41,485 nt of DNA, taken from UHGV virus genome UHGV-0203597. One strand, given 5' to 3'. Below the pieces are notes generated by a model. That model ran no database searches, was not told the origin of the DNA, and saw only the letters and a program-made list of their open reading frames with translations. Position 1 is the stretch's first letter, and every line of letters begins with the position of its first letter. Made by a program: the position numbers and the translations under genes. This DNA comes from a virus. Shown piece after piece: positions 16,889-25,206 of this stretch.

Positions 16889-17670
16889 ACAACGTTTTTA
16901 CCGCGATACAAAACCGTGACGGAGAAGCCCTTTCTCGCATGTCAGGTTATGAGCATCAGTACGTCAACAATGACAATGTGGTGAACATGTCAGCAGAGAG
17001 GCTTGTTGATGCCCTTTTTAAACAGCTGAAACAACTGTTTCCGGCGGCAGTGGTAACCAACCTGAAGACGCCAGAGCAGGAAGTTGCTGCAAAACAGCAG
17101 TGGATTGCTGCGTTTGCCGAAGGGGGGATCCGAACCCGTGAACAGGTTTCTGCTGGTATGCGCCACGCCCGCGCCAGTGAATCTCCGTTCTGGCCGTCGC
17201 CAGGGCAATTTATCAAGTGGTGTAAAGACAGCAAGATGGTTCTTGGCGTCACCATTGACGATGTGATGGCGGAGTTTCACCGGTACAGCAAGGAAAAAAG
17301 TTTATATCCTGGTGGTCCCGAAAGATTCCCGTGGCGGCATCCGGTTATGTACTGGGTCGTATGTGATACCCGCCGTGCAATGTATCAGCGCCAGCTTAGC
17401 GAGATTGAGGTTGAGAAACACGCGCGCAGGCTGCTTGATGATTGGGCGAAAAAGGTGGCTTCCGGACAGCAGATACCCGATCCGGTGATCAGCATACAGG
17501 CAAAGCCAGAACCCATGAGTACGCCTCCGGACACAGGGAGAGACGTTTACCATCCACCAGGGCGAAGTTTCGGGTGTATGCCTAACGCCGCTACCCTGGG
17601 GGGAATAACACCGGCGCAGTGGCTGATGGAGGAATACAGGCGGGGAAAGGCGGCAGGATTTATCAAGTAA
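16885..17670 (+). CDS. Lambda P-like replication protein (helicase loader)
   Basis: GTG start overlapping initiator stop; extended similarity to recalled lambda P (SPFWPSPGQF vs RPFLPSPGQF; LYPGGPERFPW vs LYPDAESYPW). Confidence 0.8.
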   Translation: MNNVFTAIQNRDGEALSRMSGYEHQYVNNDNVVNMSAERLVDALFKQLKQLFPAAVVTNLKTPEQEVAAKQQWIAAFAEGGIRTREQVSAGMRHARASESPFWPSPGQFIKWCKDSKMVLGVTIDDVMAEFHRYSKEKSLYPGGPERFPWRHPVMYWVVCDTRRAMYQRQLSEIEVEKHARRLLDDWAKKVASGQQIPDPVISIQAKPEPMSTPPDTGRDVYHPPGRSFGCMPNAATLGGITPAQWLMEEYRRGKAAGFIK

Positions 17671-17707
17671 TACCAGCGCGATAGCGCATTTTTTTACGCC
17701 TCGACAA

Positions 17708-17722
17708 TTACCTGTTAGGTAA
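17708..17722. promoter_or_regulatory. TTACC-N5-GGTAA operator-like palindrome
   Basis: ttacctgttaggtaa. Confidence 0.45.
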
Positions 17723-17769
17723 TAAAATATTCTAAAATCTATTGATTTCGTGTCTTATGTGGTTTTTAA

Positions 17770-17787: not shown

Positions 17788-18141
17788 ATGAGAAAACAGA
17801 TACAGGCTCTTGGTCGACTCAAAACAGGCCAGATGAACAAAACAGAATCTGCGTATTGCCAGCACCTTGAGCTTCGTAAACGTGCAGGGGAAATCGCCTG
17901 GTATCGATTCGAGGGTATCAAGCTACGGTTAGCTGACAACTGCTTCCTGACTGTAGATTTTGCCGTGATGTTGGCTGACGGGCAGTTGGTGATGGTGGAC
18001 GTTAAGGGAAGTAAGTCAGTCTTTACTGACGATGCGAGAGTCAAGATGAAGGTTGCGGCAGACAGCTATCCGTTTGTCTTTCAGGTTGCTTATCCAAAAC
18101 CTAAAAAGCTCGGTGGTGGATGGGAGGTTGAGGAACTATGA
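17788..18141 (+). CDS. Putative PD-(D/E)XK nuclease (DUF1064-like), possible junction resolvase
   Basis: 117 aa; TVDFAV...VMVDVKG fits D...(D/E)xK; family recalled from memory. Confidence 0.4.
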   Translation: MRKQIQALGRLKTGQMNKTESAYCQHLELRKRAGEIAWYRFEGIKLRLADNCFLTVDFAVMLADGQLVMVDVKGSKSVFTDDARVKMKVAADSYPFVFQVAYPKPKKLGGGWEVEEL

Positions 18142-18746
18142 GCGAGAAGCCCAATGCTGCGGGATTGATTGTATCCGGTGATAAAAACCCGAATTGGAAG
18201 GGTGGGAAAATCGAAAAGGTTTGCTCCGTATGTGGCAGGCAATATCAGGTTAAGCGAGCCAACTCATCTTCAAGGTTCTGCTCACTTCAGTGTGTAGGAA
18301 TTTCACAGCGAGGCAAGACGGTAAATCGGGAACTAAAGCGAGTATTAAAAATATGCTGCGTATGCGGATCTTCGTTCTCCGTTTTCTTGAGTCATGAGAA
18401 GCGTCATAAATGCTGCTCGAAACAGTGTTCCAACATAATGCGTTCTTCTCTGATGAAGGGGGAAGGAAATCCAAACTGGTCTGGTGGATTATCGAGATTG
18501 CCGTATCCGTGGGATTTCCGAGAAACGAGCAAGAGGGTTATTGAGCGAGATGGTTTTACTTGTCAGAACCCAGGTTGTGATGGAACAGACAAAAGGCTAA
18601 CAACTCATCACATCAATTACGACAAGCAAGATTGTCGTCAGGAGAACCTTATTTGCCTTTGTTCGAGCTGTAACTCGAAGGCTAATTTCGGTCGGCATAA
18701 GTGGCAAAAGTTTTATGAATCACTGATGAAAAATAGATCGGCATGA
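18138..18746 (+). CDS. HNH homing endonuclease
   Basis: 202 aa; repeated NPNWKGG/NPNWSGG motifs; HNH core HHINYDKQDCRQENLICLCSSCN; AT-rich relative to neighbours. Confidence 0.8.
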   Translation: MSEKPNAAGLIVSGDKNPNWKGGKIEKVCSVCGRQYQVKRANSSSRFCSLQCVGISQRGKTVNRELKRVLKICCVCGSSFSVFLSHEKRHKCCSKQCSNIMRSSLMKGEGNPNWSGGLSRLPYPWDFRETSKRVIERDGFTCQNPGCDGTDKRLTTHHINYDKQDCRQENLICLCSSCNSKANFGRHKWQKFYESLMKNRSA

Positions 18747-18807: not shown

Positions 18808-19245
18808 ATGGAAAGTAATATCAAAGGGTTAGTTTCCGCCGGGCATGAGATGGCTTCGGAACTGAAAGCAGAATGTGGTGCCGTTGATATGCGCAGTGTG
18901 GCAAAGCTGATCAGCGATTTGGCAACGCAGCTGGAAGTGCAACTGGTGCGTGCTAATGCGCTGGCTGCGGAGAATGCGCTGGCTCGTAAAGCAGTTCAGG
19001 CATTTTGCGATGTTGTTGGCGACAGCACCGAGGTTATCTGCGAGGAGATTGGGCGAGATGGCGTTCTGGTTATTTTGGAGGCAATGAAGGCAACAGGAAA
19101 TATGCCAGCCACCGATGCTTTCCTGTCTGAAGTGCGGGCGCAGGGGGTAGAGATGATGCGCGAACATCCATCAATCAAACTTTGTTCTTTGACGCACATA
19201 TGTGATGAGTTAGCCGCCCAGCTTCGCAAAGGAGGCAACCAGTGA
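18808..19245 (+). CDS. Hypothetical protein
   Basis: 145 aa; complete ORF with RBS; possible Ea22-like (low confidence). Confidence 0.4.
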   Translation: MESNIKGLVSAGHEMASELKAECGAVDMRSVAKLISDLATQLEVQLVRANALAAENALARKAVQAFCDVVGDSTEVICEEIGRDGVLVILEAMKATGNMPATDAFLSEVRAQGVEMMREHPSIKLCSLTHICDELAAQLRKGGNQ

Positions 19246-19466
19246 GCGGAAAAAGAATGACTAACAGAGAGCTTGTCGATGCCGCGATTAAGCTTGCTGG
19301 TGATTTTTATTCAATGATGGGGTACACGCATCGCCCAGGCTTCAAATATTGGGAGTCTCCTCACCCGCAAGAGCAACTGGTATTTCAAATGGCCTGCCGT
19401 GCTTTTGAGGTTATTCGCGGTTCTGATGTGATGGACGCCGTTGCCGACTTGGAGGATGAAGAGTGA
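19242..19466 (+). CDS. Hypothetical protein
   Basis: 74 aa; translationally coupled to neighbours. Confidence 0.4.
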   Translation: MSGKRMTNRELVDAAIKLAGDFYSMMGYTHRPGFKYWESPHPQEQLVFQMACRAFEVIRGSDVMDAVADLEDEE

Positions 19467-19822
19467 GCGAGATTAATTATCAGGAAGGGCATGAAAAGGC
19501 AGGGCAGGCAAAACCAGTGGCATGGCGATATCGCTACGTGAAAAAAGGCGTTACAGACTTTCAGGGGAAGCAGTGGGTTGGTGACTGGAAATATGTACCG
19601 ACAAAAGAGGATTGCAACGACAGACCGAACTATGAAATTCAGGCGTTATTCACTGCCCCGCCTGTGCCACTGACACCAGAAGGATTGATTAAAGCAGTGC
19701 GTTTCTATGAACAGGTAAAGCGTGAGAATCCGCCAGTCGAAACCGGAGCATGGAAAGACGCTGTTGACTGGGTGCTCAAAGAGGCTTGCCAGTCTGTAAA
19801 CATTGGCATCAAAGGAGAGTGA
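19463..19822 (+). CDS. Hypothetical protein
   Basis: 119 aa; coupled. Confidence 0.4.
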   Translation: MSEINYQEGHEKAGQAKPVAWRYRYVKKGVTDFQGKQWVGDWKYVPTKEDCNDRPNYEIQALFTAPPVPLTPEGLIKAVRFYEQVKRENPPVETGAWKDAVDWVLKEACQSVNIGIKGE

Positions 19823-19825
19823 GAA

Positions 19826-20316
19826 TGCAAATTTCACCGGTTACTCTTCGTGTTGCGAAGGCGTTTATATCCAGACATCACCGACACAATAACCCCCCGG
19901 TGGGGCATAAATTCAGCATTGGTCTGAGAAATGATGCCGGAGAATTGATAGGTGTGGCGACAGCCGGTCGACCTGTTGCACGACATTTGGATGATGGATT
20001 AACGCTTGAAGTAAATCGCACATGTACCACAGGAGAACGCAACGCTAACAGCGCGCTTTATGGTGCTGTCTGGCGGGCAGCAAAAGCTATGGGTTATCAA
20101 CGTTGTATTACGTACACCCGGGCAGATGAATCAGGAGCATCTCTTCGCGCAGCTGGTTTTGTTCGTGTGAAAGAGCTTCCTCCAAGAAAAAGCTGGGCGG
20201 AATCAAGCGTCGCCCTGCGGAGTAAACGCGATCCAGTCGGAAACGGTGGTGTTCCTCGTGTGCTCTGGGAAATCAGGATAATGAGTACCACTGGTATTCG
20301 CATCAAAGGAGAGTGA
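19826..20316 (+). CDS. Hypothetical protein, possibly acetyltransferase-like fold
   Basis: 163 aa from MQISPV; AAAGGAG RBS; pattern LIGVATAGRP...TYTRADESGASLRAAGF reminiscent of an acyl-CoA N-acyltransferase core (uncertain). Confidence 0.4.
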
Positions 20317-20317
20317 T

Positions 20318-20581
20318 ATGGCAACTTTGACAAAAAAAGAACGGGCATGGTTGAACGAATTACAGGACGTTCTTGATCGCTGCCCATCACCGAAAAAAAT
20401 TGGTTTTTACACCATTGGCGATAAAAGCATTTACCTGTATGACCTGCGCCGCATGGATGAAATCATGGAGGCTCTTGATAATCGTTCGTCGATGGATTGG
20501 TGTGTTGCTGTCCATGATATGAATGCCGGATTTGATGAAAGGATTTTGTTCCCCTCATCAGTTGAAAGCACTGCGGGTTAA
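20318..20581 (+). CDS. Hypothetical protein
   Basis: 87 aa. Confidence 0.4.
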   Translation: MATLTKKERAWLNELQDVLDRCPSPKKIGFYTIGDKSIYLYDLRRMDEIMEALDNRSSMDWCVAVHDMNAGFDERILFPSSVESTAG

Positions 20582-20591
20582 GGAGTAACAC

Positions 20592-21374
20592 ATGACCACT
20601 ATTACCAAAGAACGTATTGAATTGTTCATTAAAAATCCGCTTGAAAACGGGCTTACCCGTGGTGAACAAATGGAACTGGCACGGATTGCGCTGGCATCAC
20701 TGGAAGCAGAACCAGTTGCTTATATTTTCAAACATCCGGCCGGGAAATTATTCTGGGCTTTAACGGATGAAAGCAATAAAGAGCAACCGGACGTTATTCC
20801 TGTTTATGCTGACTCACCTGCGCCGGTTGTGCCGGATGAAATAGACGTAAACGATGTACCAAGGGCGGTGACATATTTCAAGACACACAGAGATTGTTAC
20901 GCAGATGGCTGGAACGCCTGCCGCGCCGCCATGCTTCAGTCCGGAAACTTTCGGGAAAATAAGAATTCGTCAACCAATAATTTTCGGGAAATCGCGGAAA
21001 CGTCAACCAACTATCCGGTAATTCCGGATGGTTTATCCACGGTATGCGCTGAGGCTTATCAGGTTGTAGGAGTTATGGCAGATGCGCTTGGTGTATTCGG
21101 TGATGCAGCAGTACAGAAAGTTCTGGATAACCTGTCACAGCAAAAACTTGTTCACAGAGATGTGCTGCCGTTCTCGCTTCCGGTAACTCCGGATGGTTGG
21201 ATAAGCTGTAGTGATCGAATGCCGAACGACGCGCAGTGGTGCGTAGTGAACACAGAATACGGGTATTACGTGCAATGCTGGTCTGAAGGTCAAGGGTGGC
21301 TTGGTGATGATATCAGCATCCCTAAATGCGATGTAATCAATTGGATGCCTCTACCAGAACCGCCGCAGGGGTGA
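20592..21374 (+). CDS. DUF551-like C-terminal domain protein
   Basis: 260 aa; C-terminal WISCSDRMP...WCVVNTEYGYYVQCW...WMPLPEPP; internal direct repeat 20949-21010. Confidence 0.5.
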   Translation: MTTITKERIELFIKNPLENGLTRGEQMELARIALASLEAEPVAYIFKHPAGKLFWALTDESNKEQPDVIPVYADSPAPVVPDEIDVNDVPRAVTYFKTHRDCYADGWNACRAAMLQSGNFRENKNSSTNNFREIAETSTNYPVIPDGLSTVCAEAYQVVGVMADALGVFGDAAVQKVLDNLSQQKLVHRDVLPFSLPVTPDGWISCSDRMPNDAQWCVVNTEYGYYVQCWSEGQGWLGDDISIPKCDVINWMPLPEPPQG

Positions 21375-21440
21375 AATGATGCTTGGCCTGAAGTATTTTA
21401 TGTAATTGGTATTGCTATATTTTTATCTGGGGATAAACGA

Positions 21441-21683
21441 ATGTTCTCTCTGATTCAACGTGGTCAGATATACACCGATAGCGCTGGCTATCCAGTAAAA
21501 ATCATTCGTAGTACTGATCACTCAGTATTCTTCAAGAGGATGGATGGCTATCCTGGAAGAGTGTGCATCAGAAAATTCAATAATTTATTCGAACACATTG
21601 ATCACAGAGAATATCACCAGATCCTGGCTGAAACAGAACAGGAGAACCATCTGAAAAAATTACGTGCTATGCAAAGGAGATAA
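21441..21683 (+). CDS. Hypothetical protein
   Basis: 80 aa. Confidence 0.4.
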   Translation: MFSLIQRGQIYTDSAGYPVKIIRSTDHSVFFKRMDGYPGRVCIRKFNNLFEHIDHREYHQILAETEQENHLKKLRAMQRR

Positions 21684-21718
21684 ACCGGTAAATGTGTTCG
21701 CGATAAAGGTAAATATTG

Positions 21719-22057
21719 ATGGCTAAATCAGCAGCAGAGCGCAAAGCCGCTCAGAGAGCCAGACAAGCTGCATCTGGTGTGCGTAAGCTGGAAATTGTGC
21801 TTGATGCTCAGGAAATTGAAATGCTGGAGCGTAACTGTGCCACGCGTCGCCCCGGGCGTGCGCCTTACGAATTTGGTGAGTATATAGCGTTACTGATCCG
21901 CCAGGATGATGCACGCGTGCGCGGGCGTATAAAATCGATCAGCAGAAAACGTTGCGGTAAGTGCGGCGAGAGAGTTCCAGTTAATTCATGCCCGTGTAAT
22001 GGTGACTCGCAATGCTGGGTGACCAAAGGCTGGCATGAAACGAAATTAATAGTGTGA
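21719..22057 (+). CDS. Putative regulator with basic N-terminus and C-terminal Cys cluster (candidate late-gene regulator)
   Basis: 112 aa; CGKCGERVPVNSCPCNGDSQC; close upstream of the late operon; stop lies in GTGACATGTCAC. Confidence 0.4.
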   Translation: MAKSAAERKAAQRARQAASGVRKLEIVLDAQEIEMLERNCATRRPGRAPYEFGEYIALLIRQDDARVRGRIKSISRKRCGKCGERVPVNSCPCNGDSQCWVTKGWHETKLIV

Positions 22058-22065
22058 CATGTCAC
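22054..22065. repeat. 12-bp palindrome GTGACATGTCAC, copy 2 of 3
   Basis: Overlaps stop of 21719-22057 and the start region of the next ORF. Confidence 0.5.
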
Positions 22066-22074
22066 GAAGGTGTT

Positions 22075-22287
22075 ATGCCAAAAATACGCTACGACCTTGA
22101 AGATATGAGAGATAACTCAGCAAATTTTCCGAAAGAGGTTAAATTTCTCATGAATAAGTATGGTTGCGCCAGGAGGGATATAGTTATCGACAGTCAGCAC
22201 CCTTGCGGCGAGGATGTAATTTTCATTCGCGGTAAATGGGAATGGTATCTTGACGAGAGTTTTTACGATGAATTTGATGGACTTTGA
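22075..22287 (+). CDS. Hypothetical protein
   Basis: 70 aa from MPKIRYDL (alternative GTG 22054); GAAGGTG RBS. Confidence 0.35.
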   Translation: MPKIRYDLEDMRDNSANFPKEVKFLMNKYGCARRDIVIDSQHPCGEDVIFIRGKWEWYLDESFYDEFDGL

Positions 22288-22292
22288 ATACT

Positions 22293-22319
22293 GCCGCCAA
22301 CTATGGCGGCTTTATTTTG
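22293..22319 (+). terminator. Terminator preceding the terminase operon
   Basis: gccgcc-aactat-ggcggc followed by tttattttg. Confidence 0.6.
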
Positions 22320-22329
22320 CATGGTACTA

Positions 22330-22344
22330 TTACCACAACGGTAA
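22330..22344. promoter_or_regulatory. TTACC-N5-GGTAA operator-like palindrome upstream of terminase
   Basis: ttaccacaacggtaa 18 nt before terS ATG; second imperfect copy at 22348-22362. Confidence 0.45.
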
Positions 22345-22361
22345 CTATTACCACGGTGGTT

Positions 22362-22994
22362 ATGATGCCTGCTGAACCTAAAACCTATAAACGTAAATCA
22401 ACGCAATTTAAGCCACTAACAGCAATGCAGGAGGCTTATTGCCAGTCATACATCAAAACGCCTGAAAACCAGACTCAGGCAGCGATTAACGCAGGATTCT
22501 CCCCAAATACAGCGGCAGTTAAAGCAAGTGTCATGATGCGCGATGAACGCATTCAAAAACGGATTGCCGAGTTGATGGAGGAGCGCAACAAACGAATGCG
22601 CGTCAGTGCTGATTACGTTCTCATGCGCCTGGTGGAGATCGACCAGATGGACGTGCTGGATATACTGAACGATGACGGCGGGATGAAGCCGATCGCTGAA
22701 TGGCCGAAGGTCTGGCGTACCTCTCTCAGTGCTATGGATATCGCTACCATCAAGACAACCCAGGCTTCCCTGCAAAAAGAGAATGGCGAGGCGGATCTCT
22801 CTGTTGAGGATGTCGAGCATATCCTGAAGAAGGTGAAATGGCCTGACAAGGTGAAGAACCTTGAGCTGATTGGTAAGCATGTTGATGTCAACGCATTCAA
22901 AGAACGTCTGGATGTTAATGTGAATGTGACAATTGCTGATCGCATAGCAGCAGCCAGGAAGCGACTCAAAGAACGTCAGGATGGTAATCAGTGA
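22362..22994 (+). CDS. Terminase small subunit
   Basis: 210 aa from MMPAEP; position before large terminase with 4-nt overlap; N-terminal DNA-binding-like region. Confidence 0.6.
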   Translation: MMPAEPKTYKRKSTQFKPLTAMQEAYCQSYIKTPENQTQAAINAGFSPNTAAVKASVMMRDERIQKRIAELMEERNKRMRVSADYVLMRLVEIDQMDVLDILNDDGGMKPIAEWPKVWRTSLSAMDIATIKTTQASLQKENGEADLSVEDVEHILKKVKWPDKVKNLELIGKHVDVNAFKERLDVNVNVTIADRIAAARKRLKERQDGNQ

Positions 22995-25129: not shown

Positions 25130-25206
25130 TGGCGTGGCATGCAGGATTCGAACCTGCGACCAACCGCTTAGAAGGCGGTTGCTCTGTCCAACTGAGCTAA
25201 TGCCAC
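25130..25206 (-). tRNA. tRNA-Arg (anticodon UCU), phage-encoded variant
   Basis: 77 nt GTGGCATTAGCTCAGTTGGACAGAGCAACCGCCTTCTAAGCGGTTGGTCGCAGGTTCGAATCCTGCATGCCACGCCA; full cloverleaf with 7-bp acceptor stem, GTTCGAATC T-loop, encoded CCA; D and T arms match recalled E. coli argU, acceptor and anticodon stems differ. Confidence 0.85.

Follow-up and report, generated by a model that had tools for sequence, protein, structure and literature searches.

A mosaic accessory gene array in a Uetakevirus genome and its XF1762-family protein, a GNAT-fold relative of Mom

Introduction

Which functions are carried by the run of nine small genes at positions 18808-22287 of the virus genome UHGV-0203597, and does the fourth of them encode an enzyme that modifies DNA? 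We addressed this question for the whole stretch of 41,485 nucleotides (nt), hereafter the window, and numbered the nine genes g1 to g9. From our analyses, we conclude that the block is very probably an array of accessory gene cassettes, and we are confident that the product of g4 is a GNAT whose closest relation is to Mom, the DNA-modifying protein of phage Mu. To the explanation as a whole, in which such an array carries a Mom-like g4 that acylates nucleic acid, we give an even chance.

Results

Gene content of the block

The block is filled by nine consecutive open reading frames (ORFs) of 70-260 codons on the + strand, spaced by -4 to +66 nt (4-nt overlaps or gaps of 1-66 nt). Each start is preceded by a Shine-Dalgarno (SD)-like sequence, and all nine products matched PHROG families (E 1e-33 to 1e-56). 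Seven antisense ORFs inside the block (63-112 amino acids, aa) were without a match in PHROGs and are not counted as genes, and an Rfam scan detected no RNA family within the block. The nine + strand genes are therefore real, which bears out the string of small genes described by the initial annotation, a reading of the same sequence made without database searches. That annotation had started the 163-aa protein at 19826, a frame interrupted by eight stops; the 163-codon frame opens at the ATG at 19825. The starts of g8 (ATG 21719) and g9 (ATG 22075) follow the Prokaryotic Genome Annotation Pipeline (PGAP) annotation of a 99.8%-identical prophage and the extent of the PHROG matches.

g1, 18808-19245, + strand: 145 aa, isoelectric point (pI) 4.9.
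g2, 19242-19466, + strand: 74 aa, acidic; 4-nt overlap with g1.
g3, 19463-19822, + strand: 119 aa; putative cassette boundary sequence at the 3' end.
g4, 19825-20316, + strand: 163 aa, pI 10.9; GNAT-fold protein of the XF1762 family.
g5, 20318-20581, + strand: 87 aa, acidic.
g6, 20592-21374, + strand: 260 aa, acidic; EaA-like, with C-terminal DUF551.
g7, 21441-21683, + strand: 80 aa, basic; DUF4222.
g8, 21719-22057, + strand: 112 aa, pI 9.8; the ORF from 21716 has 113 aa.
g9, 22075-22287, + strand: 70 aa, acidic; 77 aa if read from the GTG at 22054.

Five of the nine products are small acidic proteins. An acidic makeup is frequent among DNA mimics, yet there is no evidence for such a role here.

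Mosaic organization of the block

The backbone of the window is 96-97% identical to the Uetakevirus phages vB_EcoP_PAS61, phiv142-3, TL-2011b and phiV10. Judged by its sequence, the phage is an epsilon15/phiV10-type temperate podophage (Uetakevirus) of E. coli and not a lambdoid phage. The block itself is a patchwork. No phage and no complete E. coli genome covered more than 70% of its 3.5 kb, and pieces of it are shared by thousands. Uetakevirus relatives matched it only in patches (17-29% coverage), and the same slot in PAS61 and phiV10 holds different gene sets. In the closest relative, the E. coli Nord58 prophage, g1 and g5-g9 are present at 99.8% identity and one ead/Ea22-like gene replaces g2-g3-g4. 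E. coli 042 carries g3-g4-g5-g6 together in a lambdoid prophage, where they occupy the nin position. Among the 80 viral loci closest to that of g4, its commonest neighbour was g5, which is not obligatory (38 of 80); g3 was present in 30 and g6 in 24, and in 22 of the 80 g4 occurred without any other gene of the window.

A 36-nt direct repeat flanks the g4 gene exactly, in two copies that are 83% identical and spaced by 494 nt.

Left boundary repeat copy, 19802-19837, + strand: …ATCAAAGGAGAGTGA and the next ATG; comprises the g3 stop and the g4 SD sequence and start.
Right boundary repeat copy, 20296-20331, + strand: comprises the g4 stop and the g5 SD sequence and start.

The 17-nt core of the repeat, GCATCAAAGGAGAGTGA, is present in exactly two places in the window, where none would be expected, and supplies the stop codon of one gene together with the ribosome-binding site of the next. 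The repeat also encodes the C-terminal '...IKGE-stop' common to g3 and g4. Because the same 17-mer terminates unrelated genes in relatives that lack the XF1762 gene, namely the Nord58 prophage (locus L248, 4126-4142) and PAS61 (locus L002, 3725-3741), the 36-nt repeat looks like a cassette-exchange boundary sequence.

In the array that we propose, independently exchangeable gene cassettes would recombine at short conserved boundaries that combine the stop codon of one gene with the ribosome-binding site and start codon of the following one. The array would form the hypervariable end of the rightward (replication-side) operon, from after the DUF1064 and HNH genes to the terminator before the terminase genes. 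The eight genes besides g4 would, with the exception of g8, be dispensable and swapped among related phages. The exact 36-nt repeat around g4 offers a clean illustration of how accessory cassettes move.

The initial annotation had regarded the block as a Nin-like region of a lambdoid phage, a type of region in which counter-defence genes gather. Its hypervariable accessory character stands, as seen in the patchy coverage and the exchanged gene sets, and g3-g6 do occupy a true nin position in the E. coli 042 prophage. The lambdoid assignment fails for this Uetakevirus genome, and Pfam and PHROG searches found no homologs of NinA-NinH, Rap, Orf, RusA or Q among the nine products. None of the nine products matched any PADLOC model; since PADLOC holds models of defence and lacks those of anti-defence, this silence says little.

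Family and fold of g4

The g4 protein is a typical member of the XF1762 family, the prototype of which is XF1762 of Xylella fastidiosa and which includes phi1026b gp66, ZF40 gp36 and Min1 gp31. It matched the NCBIfam model NF045478 'XF1762 family protein' with 202.6 bits (cut-off 50) over model positions 2-130 of 143; distant family members score 191-215 bits. The motifs HHRH, GRPVAR, TxEVxR, NANS and ExGxSLRAAG are kept throughout the family. PHROG 1384, 'Mom-like DNA modification protein', contains both g4 (E 1.4e-41) and Mu Mom (E 8e-84), and Mom (PF25680) is the only Pfam family touched by g4 (21.0 bits, E 3e-4, positions 3-126 of 202). A precomputed PF25680 match is carried by many close g4 homologs, and at least 8 of 20 longer relatives, which are candidates for fusion proteins, pass the Mom cut-off with 27.3-32.5 bits. 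No other GNAT family of Pfam was matched by g4 or by the 20 scanned longer relatives.

The AlphaFold2 (AF2) model of g4, with a predicted local distance difference test score (pLDDT) of 84, has the mixed alpha/beta order b1-a1-(a2)-b2-b3-b4-a3-b5-a4-b6-b7 of the GNAT fold, and its top structural match was Mom, by a slim margin. Searches of PDB chains with the g4 sequence, either alone or as a 30-sequence profile, returned nothing relevant, and Mom was recovered by fold comparison only. The fold, together with the Mom matches in Pfam and PHROG, confirms the GNAT identity that the initial annotation had suspected. Its suggestion of a DNA- or protein-modifying enzyme is upheld in so far as the nearest characterised relative is the DNA-modifying Mu Mom; the acetyl-CoA loop and the conventional GNAT families of Pfam were not found. 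Motif A, Q/R-x-x-G-x-G/A, which forms the acetyl-CoA pyrophosphate loop between b4 and a3, is missing in g4, where this loop reads T-G-E-R-N-A-N-S-A-L-Y. The family consensus at this position is N-A-[NC]-S, without a Gly pair. Mom and the XF1762 family are alike in being devoid of the motif.

Distribution and neighbours of the XF1762 family

The XF1762 family comprises 4,868 clusters at 90% identity and at least 3,283 representatives at 50% identity (E <= 1e-3). The large majority of its members are basic (91% with pI >9), and many of the invariant residues are arginines. Members from prophages of Enterobacterales, Burkholderia, Mycobacterium, Streptomyces, Microbacterium, Paenibacillus and Chloroflexota and from cyanophages share 50-65% identity, a level that spans hosts of the Actinomycetota, Pseudomonadota, Bacillota and Chloroflexota. 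Because such identity is kept across phyla, the sequences suggest universal substrates and not a host-specific protein target. Of 5,426 complete E. coli genomes, 154 carried the g4 gene, at 97-99.8% identity and always under the annotation 'XF1762 family protein'. In complete E. coli assemblies the XF1762 gene occurred 169 times, of which 20 were on plasmids; these copies are possibly carried by phage-plasmids.

No Com-like gene or other partner that always accompanies g4 was found in the 80 close loci or in about 100 non-redundant diverse viral loci, where the neighbours are heterogeneous, and the lack of a conserved partner fits a single-enzyme system. In the diverse loci, DNA methyltransferases were the commonest identifiable immediate neighbours (9 of 180 positions). 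In phi1026b, the XF1762 gene overlaps a DNA methyltransferase gene and ParB is next. Among the longer members of the family, some carry in fusion a C5-cytosine DNA methylase, a D12 N6-adenine DNA methylase or a PAPS-reductase domain, and others DUF6884, resolvase/recombinase domains or the polyvalent-protein modules YodL and LPD28. These architectures (P0178, P0155, P0239, P0257, P0232) are metagenomic gene calls, in which frameshifts are possible.

These results bear on the possibility that g4 is one of the conventional GNATs that depend on acetyl-CoA. It would then acetylate a host or phage protein, or else a small molecule (a polyamine, for instance, or a compound resembling an antibiotic), and serve host takeover or fitness without any involvement of DNA. 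We consider this improbable. Mom was the sole Pfam match of g4 and its scanned relatives, and the b4-a3 loop not only lacks the acetyl-CoA motif but carries the N-x-x-S signature of Mom. The pI of 10.9 and the many invariant arginines suggest a nucleic acid as the ligand, and the identity kept across phyla disfavours a host-specific protein target.

Comparison of g4 with Mu Mom and its putative function

Mu Mom (241 aa; PDB 8BV8) places glycine, supplied by Gly-tRNA(Gly), on N6 of adenine in double-stranded DNA, after which the adduct rearranges to 6-NcmdA (PMC13219725). Residues R111, S124 and R151 are essential, the D149A substitution strongly lowers activity, H58, Y59, W48, Y159 and W181 matter for activity, and a helix-turn-helix (HTH)-like insertion (about residues 175-209, between b6 and b7) is indispensable (PMC13219725). 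R111 is kept among Mom homologs, not across other GNATs (PMC7261163). A profile-profile alignment (hhalign) of 149 XF1762-family and 111 Mom-family sequences aligned the two families with E 6e-4 and paired the following residues, given with their conservation in the XF1762 family.

H19 (96%): pairs with Mom H58.
E62 and R65 (99% and 99%): pair with Mom E108 and R111; E-x-N-R motif, E62-V-N-R65 in g4.
N73 and S76 (96% and 96%): pair with Mom N121 and S124; the Ser lies at the start of a3.
G104 (95%): pairs with Mom G156.

By analogy with Mom, we tentatively propose that g4 modifies DNA for restriction evasion, to which we assign somewhat less than even chances. The protein would act alone, as Mom does. 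With nucleic acid bound in a cleft of positive charge, it would acylate or aminoacylate a nucleobase from an activated donor. The donor, again by analogy, would be a charged tRNA and not acetyl-CoA. The target would most probably be phage DNA made in lytic growth, and the modified DNA would escape host restriction endonucleases. Since several catalytic residues of Mom and its DNA-binding insertion are replaced in g4, this protein probably departs from the Mom reaction (glycyl-tRNA, N6-adenine, 6-NcmdA) in its donor, its target base or its product.

A number of findings weigh against this proposal, beginning with the alignment itself. The hhalign probability was only 28%, so that the match is weak even with deep alignments on both sides; with few sequences set against Mu Mom alone it was 3%. 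The Mu Mom sequence gave no match to the XF1762 model of NCBIfam, g4 falls below the gathering cut-off of the Pfam Mom profile (21.0 versus 27.1 bits), and XF1762-family members align only to about positions 2-130 of the 202 in that profile. Mom Y59 and Y159, which are 99-100% conserved within the Mom family, correspond to R20 (97% R) and L107 (91% L) in the XF1762 family. No secure counterpart of Mom D149 and R151 was found in g4, and the local and global hhalign registers disagree; near this region only E102 is conserved (95%), while position 99 is L, Q or R and position 101 is D in 31%. The HTH-like insertion of Mom (175-209) is replaced in g4 by a shorter and unrelated segment of 26 residues, 119-144, modelled with pLDDT 53-60. 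This segment is unmatched by the Pfam Mom profile and contains the conserved residues W124 (87%) and R135 (73%).

Context and literature add to these points. Mom is expressed late and tightly controlled, whereas g4 lies in an apparently early operon and is without a com-like translational regulator. The link to methyltransferases is weak, at about 5% of neighbours, and the XF1762 fusion proteins, being metagenomic predictions, could be artefacts. The eight genes besides g4 belong to catalogued families without assigned function, and the literature library that was searched contains no paper on the XF1762 family, for which there is no experiment.

We rejected the filing of g4 under the name Mom, because three defining features are absent: the tyrosines Y59 and Y159, the HTH-like insertion, and a score above the Pfam cut-off. 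On its sequence, g4 is a member of the XF1762 family, which is a sister family of Mom, and not Mom.

The missing DNA-binding insertion also favours an action on RNA, either acylation or de-charging of aminoacyl-tRNA, as by TacT and AtaT, or modification of a tRNA base, as by TmcA, so that host translation would be reprogrammed or arrested. Mom itself binds charged tRNA and tRNA-targeting GNATs exist (PMC13219725), and the basic charge of g4 suits RNA equally. Set against this are the lack of an antitoxin-like neighbour or conserved partner, and recurrent fusions and neighbours that are DNA methyltransferases, ParB and recombinases and not translation factors. An RNA target is in our view distinctly less probable than even the acetyl-CoA-dependent alternative.

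Returning to DNA as the target, a more general and rather doubtful extension is that XF1762 proteins, which are found in temperate phages of Actinomycetota, Pseudomonadota, Bacillota, Cyanobacteria and others, are minimal stand-alone enzymes of the Mom type. They would install a DNA hypermodification other than 6-NcmdA, using another aminoacyl-tRNA or acyl donor, another target base, or both.

The other genes of the block

The first 56 aa of g1 are identical to those of the 'eae-like protein' p46 of phiV10 and the sequence diverges beyond, so that g1 is, by sequence, a mosaic protein with an Eae/Ea22-type N-terminus. It matched phrog_492 (E 9e-56) as well as phrog_614, phrog_250 and phrog_368; there was no Pfam or PDB match, and PF13935 (Ead_Ea22) was not detected at E <= 0.1. 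The g6 protein matched Pfam DUF551 over residues 202-259 (42 bits, cut-off 22), and its 16 partial PHROG matches mark it as a mosaic, modular EaA-like protein. DUF551 is a portable domain, shared by variants of Ea22 and by YfdS (PMC10834534, PMC4776307). Ahead of DUF551, the g6 gene contains a 33-nt tandem duplication at 20946-21010 (NFRENKNSSTN / NFREIAETSTN) and a PV(I/T)PDG motif repeated 165 nt apart (21014-21033 and 21179-21198), which suggests a recent internal duplication in the linker.

The g7 protein matched DUF4222 (Pfam, 56 bits, cut-off 27) and phrog_285 (E 2e-33). RgdR, a prophage regulator of enterohaemorrhagic E. coli (EHEC), is likewise a DUF4222 protein and acts as an activator of the type III secretion regulon in EHEC (PMC10877973). 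The g8 protein is 99% identical to phiV10 p55, is homologous to epsilon15 p49 and is the only product of the block that is conserved in Uetakevirus. It has six conserved Cys residues, of which C40, C79, C82, C91 and C93 are invariant and C99 is nearly so. Its family, phrog_536 (E 8e-55), is labelled 'transcriptional regulator'. This label, like a tentative reading of g8 as a ribbon-helix-helix plus a zinc ribbon, is unconfirmed, because the AF2 model is poor (pLDDT 68) and a Foldseek search found no fold match (best E 4.8) and no PDB match. PDB sequence searches with g1, g6, g7 and g8 gave nothing significant.

The remaining genes, g2, g3, g5 and g9, encode small proteins in PHROGs without assigned function. 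The g2 protein is 99% identical to phiV10 p47 and matched phrog_4132 (E 9e-43). The g3 protein matched phrog_660 (E 8e-46), and the E. coli 042 prophage has the same gene 5' of its XF1762 gene. The g5 protein matched phrog_1714 over its full length (E 2e-50). The match of g9 to phrog_1541 (E 3e-37) begins at residue 11, and the ATG that corresponds to 22075 is where the PGAP annotation opens the identical gene.

According to the initial annotation, no product of the block could be assigned with confidence. This is fair for function; all nine nonetheless fall in catalogued families, and g4 has an NCBIfam equivalog match (XF1762). Of the profile searches and structure predictions that it had advised, those for g4 placed the protein beside Mom, and the model of g8 gave no fold match.

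The families found here raise the question of whether the array consists mainly of lysogeny-modulating, regulatory or selfish genes, kept because the slot tolerates insertions and not for anti-defence. Ea22 of lambda and of Shiga toxin (Stx) phages favours lysogeny, DUF551 occurs in Ea22 variants and YfdS (PMC10834534, PMC4776307), and RgdR provides a regulatory precedent for DUF4222 (PMC10877973). None of the nine genes matched PADLOC, and a homing-type HNH endonuclease gene lies directly upstream. These analogies hold at the level of families only: g1 shares the N-terminal module alone, g7 has RGQ in place of RGD, and the PADLOC result carries little weight, given that its models are of defence. 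We regard this account of the array as possible, though unlikely; it is compatible with a Mom-like g4. Taken together, the region is an ordinary phage accessory array of catalogued families, and g4 is its most interesting element.

Genomic context

On its 5' side the block adjoins an HNH endonuclease gene (18138-18746), itself preceded by a DUF1064 gene (17788-18141) and, further upstream, by replication genes of the DnaT-like and P-like types. On its 3' side come a terminator-like hairpin and the genes of the small and large terminase subunits.

Intrinsic-terminator-like hairpin, 22293-22318, + strand: GCCGCC-AACTAT-GGCGGC and then TTTATTTTG; directly after g9.

This hairpin closes the accessory operon before the terminase genes; the phiV10 annotation places a rho-independent terminator at the equivalent spot, 3' of p55. 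We infer early expression of the block from its position 3' of the replication genes and 5' of the terminator and terminase genes. The mechanical ORF of the terminase small subunit (22284-22994) starts at TTG 22284, as in the PGAP annotation of a relative. Since this start would put the terminator-like hairpin inside the gene, the ATGATG at 22364, with GGTGG ahead of it, is the more plausible start.

In the region 17668-17728, the stop of the P-like gene is followed by a short GC hairpin and a run of seven T residues, which resemble a weak terminator. Next in this region, and likewise between the P-like gene and DUF1064, is a sigma-70-like promoter (17701-17728; 10/12, TCGACA-16-TAAAAT). Given this succession of T-run hairpin and promoter, the DUF1064 gene, the HNH gene and the accessory block may form a separately controlled transcription unit. 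The HNH endonuclease (18138-18746, + strand; 202 aa, Cys-rich), which adjoins the block upstream, matched only generic HNH models of the ZorE type in PADLOC (E 3.5e-10). In the corresponding interval of the Nord58 prophage no gene is annotated, and the HNH gene may be a homing-type insertion.

Elsewhere in the window, Rfam detected a C4 antisense RNA (77.7 bits; 2384-2469, - strand) adjoining an isrK Hfq-binding RNA (72.3 bits; 2494-2569, - strand). C4-type RNAs belong to the immunity (antirepressor control) regions of the P1/P7 type. A tRNA-Arg gene with the anticodon TCT (25130-25206, - strand) lies between the terminase large subunit and portal genes, and a tRNA-Arg is likewise annotated 3' of the terminase genes in the Nord58 prophage.

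Discussion

The chemistry of Mom, solved only in 2026, defines a new functional class of GNAT enzymes. XF1762 is a much larger, strongly conserved and uncharacterised sister family that keeps the signature Arg and Ser of Mom. If g4 modifies DNA, it would represent a second, simpler version of Mom chemistry, common in prophages of E. coli and of many phyla, with a bearing on restriction evasion, on host range in phage therapy and on sequencing artefacts. If the proposal extends to the family, tRNA-dependent DNA acylation would be a widespread counter-restriction strategy of phages and not a peculiarity of Mu-like phages. If g4 does not modify DNA, the block remains a textbook case of cassette shuffling in a phage accessory region.

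Comparison with known systems

As a genomic slot, the block is of the same kind as the nin region of lambda, the ea (exo-xis) region of P22 and lambda, and p46-p55 of phiV10, all of which hold small, packed, mosaic and dispensable genes beside replication genes. Its families are of the ea type, with an Eae/Ea22-like N-terminus and a DUF551/EaA-like protein. The nin region of lambda lies between P and Q, whereas the block has no Q gene on its 3' side and runs straight into the terminator and terminase genes. Also unlike in the lambdoid nin setting, the lysis genes of this Uetakevirus are not located 3' of the block. The likeness to Ea22-V2, YfdS and lambda Ea22 is at family level only and consists of the DUF551 C-terminus in g6 and of the N-terminal module in g1. 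The kinship of g7 with RgdR is of the same order, RgdR having an RGD motif where g7 has RGQ.

With respect to Mom, g4 is the smaller protein (163 versus 241 aa), is devoid of an N-terminal extension and does not conserve the dimer residue W48. The Mom gene is a late gene at the genome end, whereas g4 belongs to a replication-side operon. In a low-confidence alignment, the b6-b7 insertions of the two proteins both open with a Trp (W181 in Mom, W124 in g4). Both proteins are strongly basic, with a pI of 10.9 for g4, a median of 9.8 for the XF1762 family and 10.0 for Mom, and both are encoded by stand-alone genes without biosynthetic partners.

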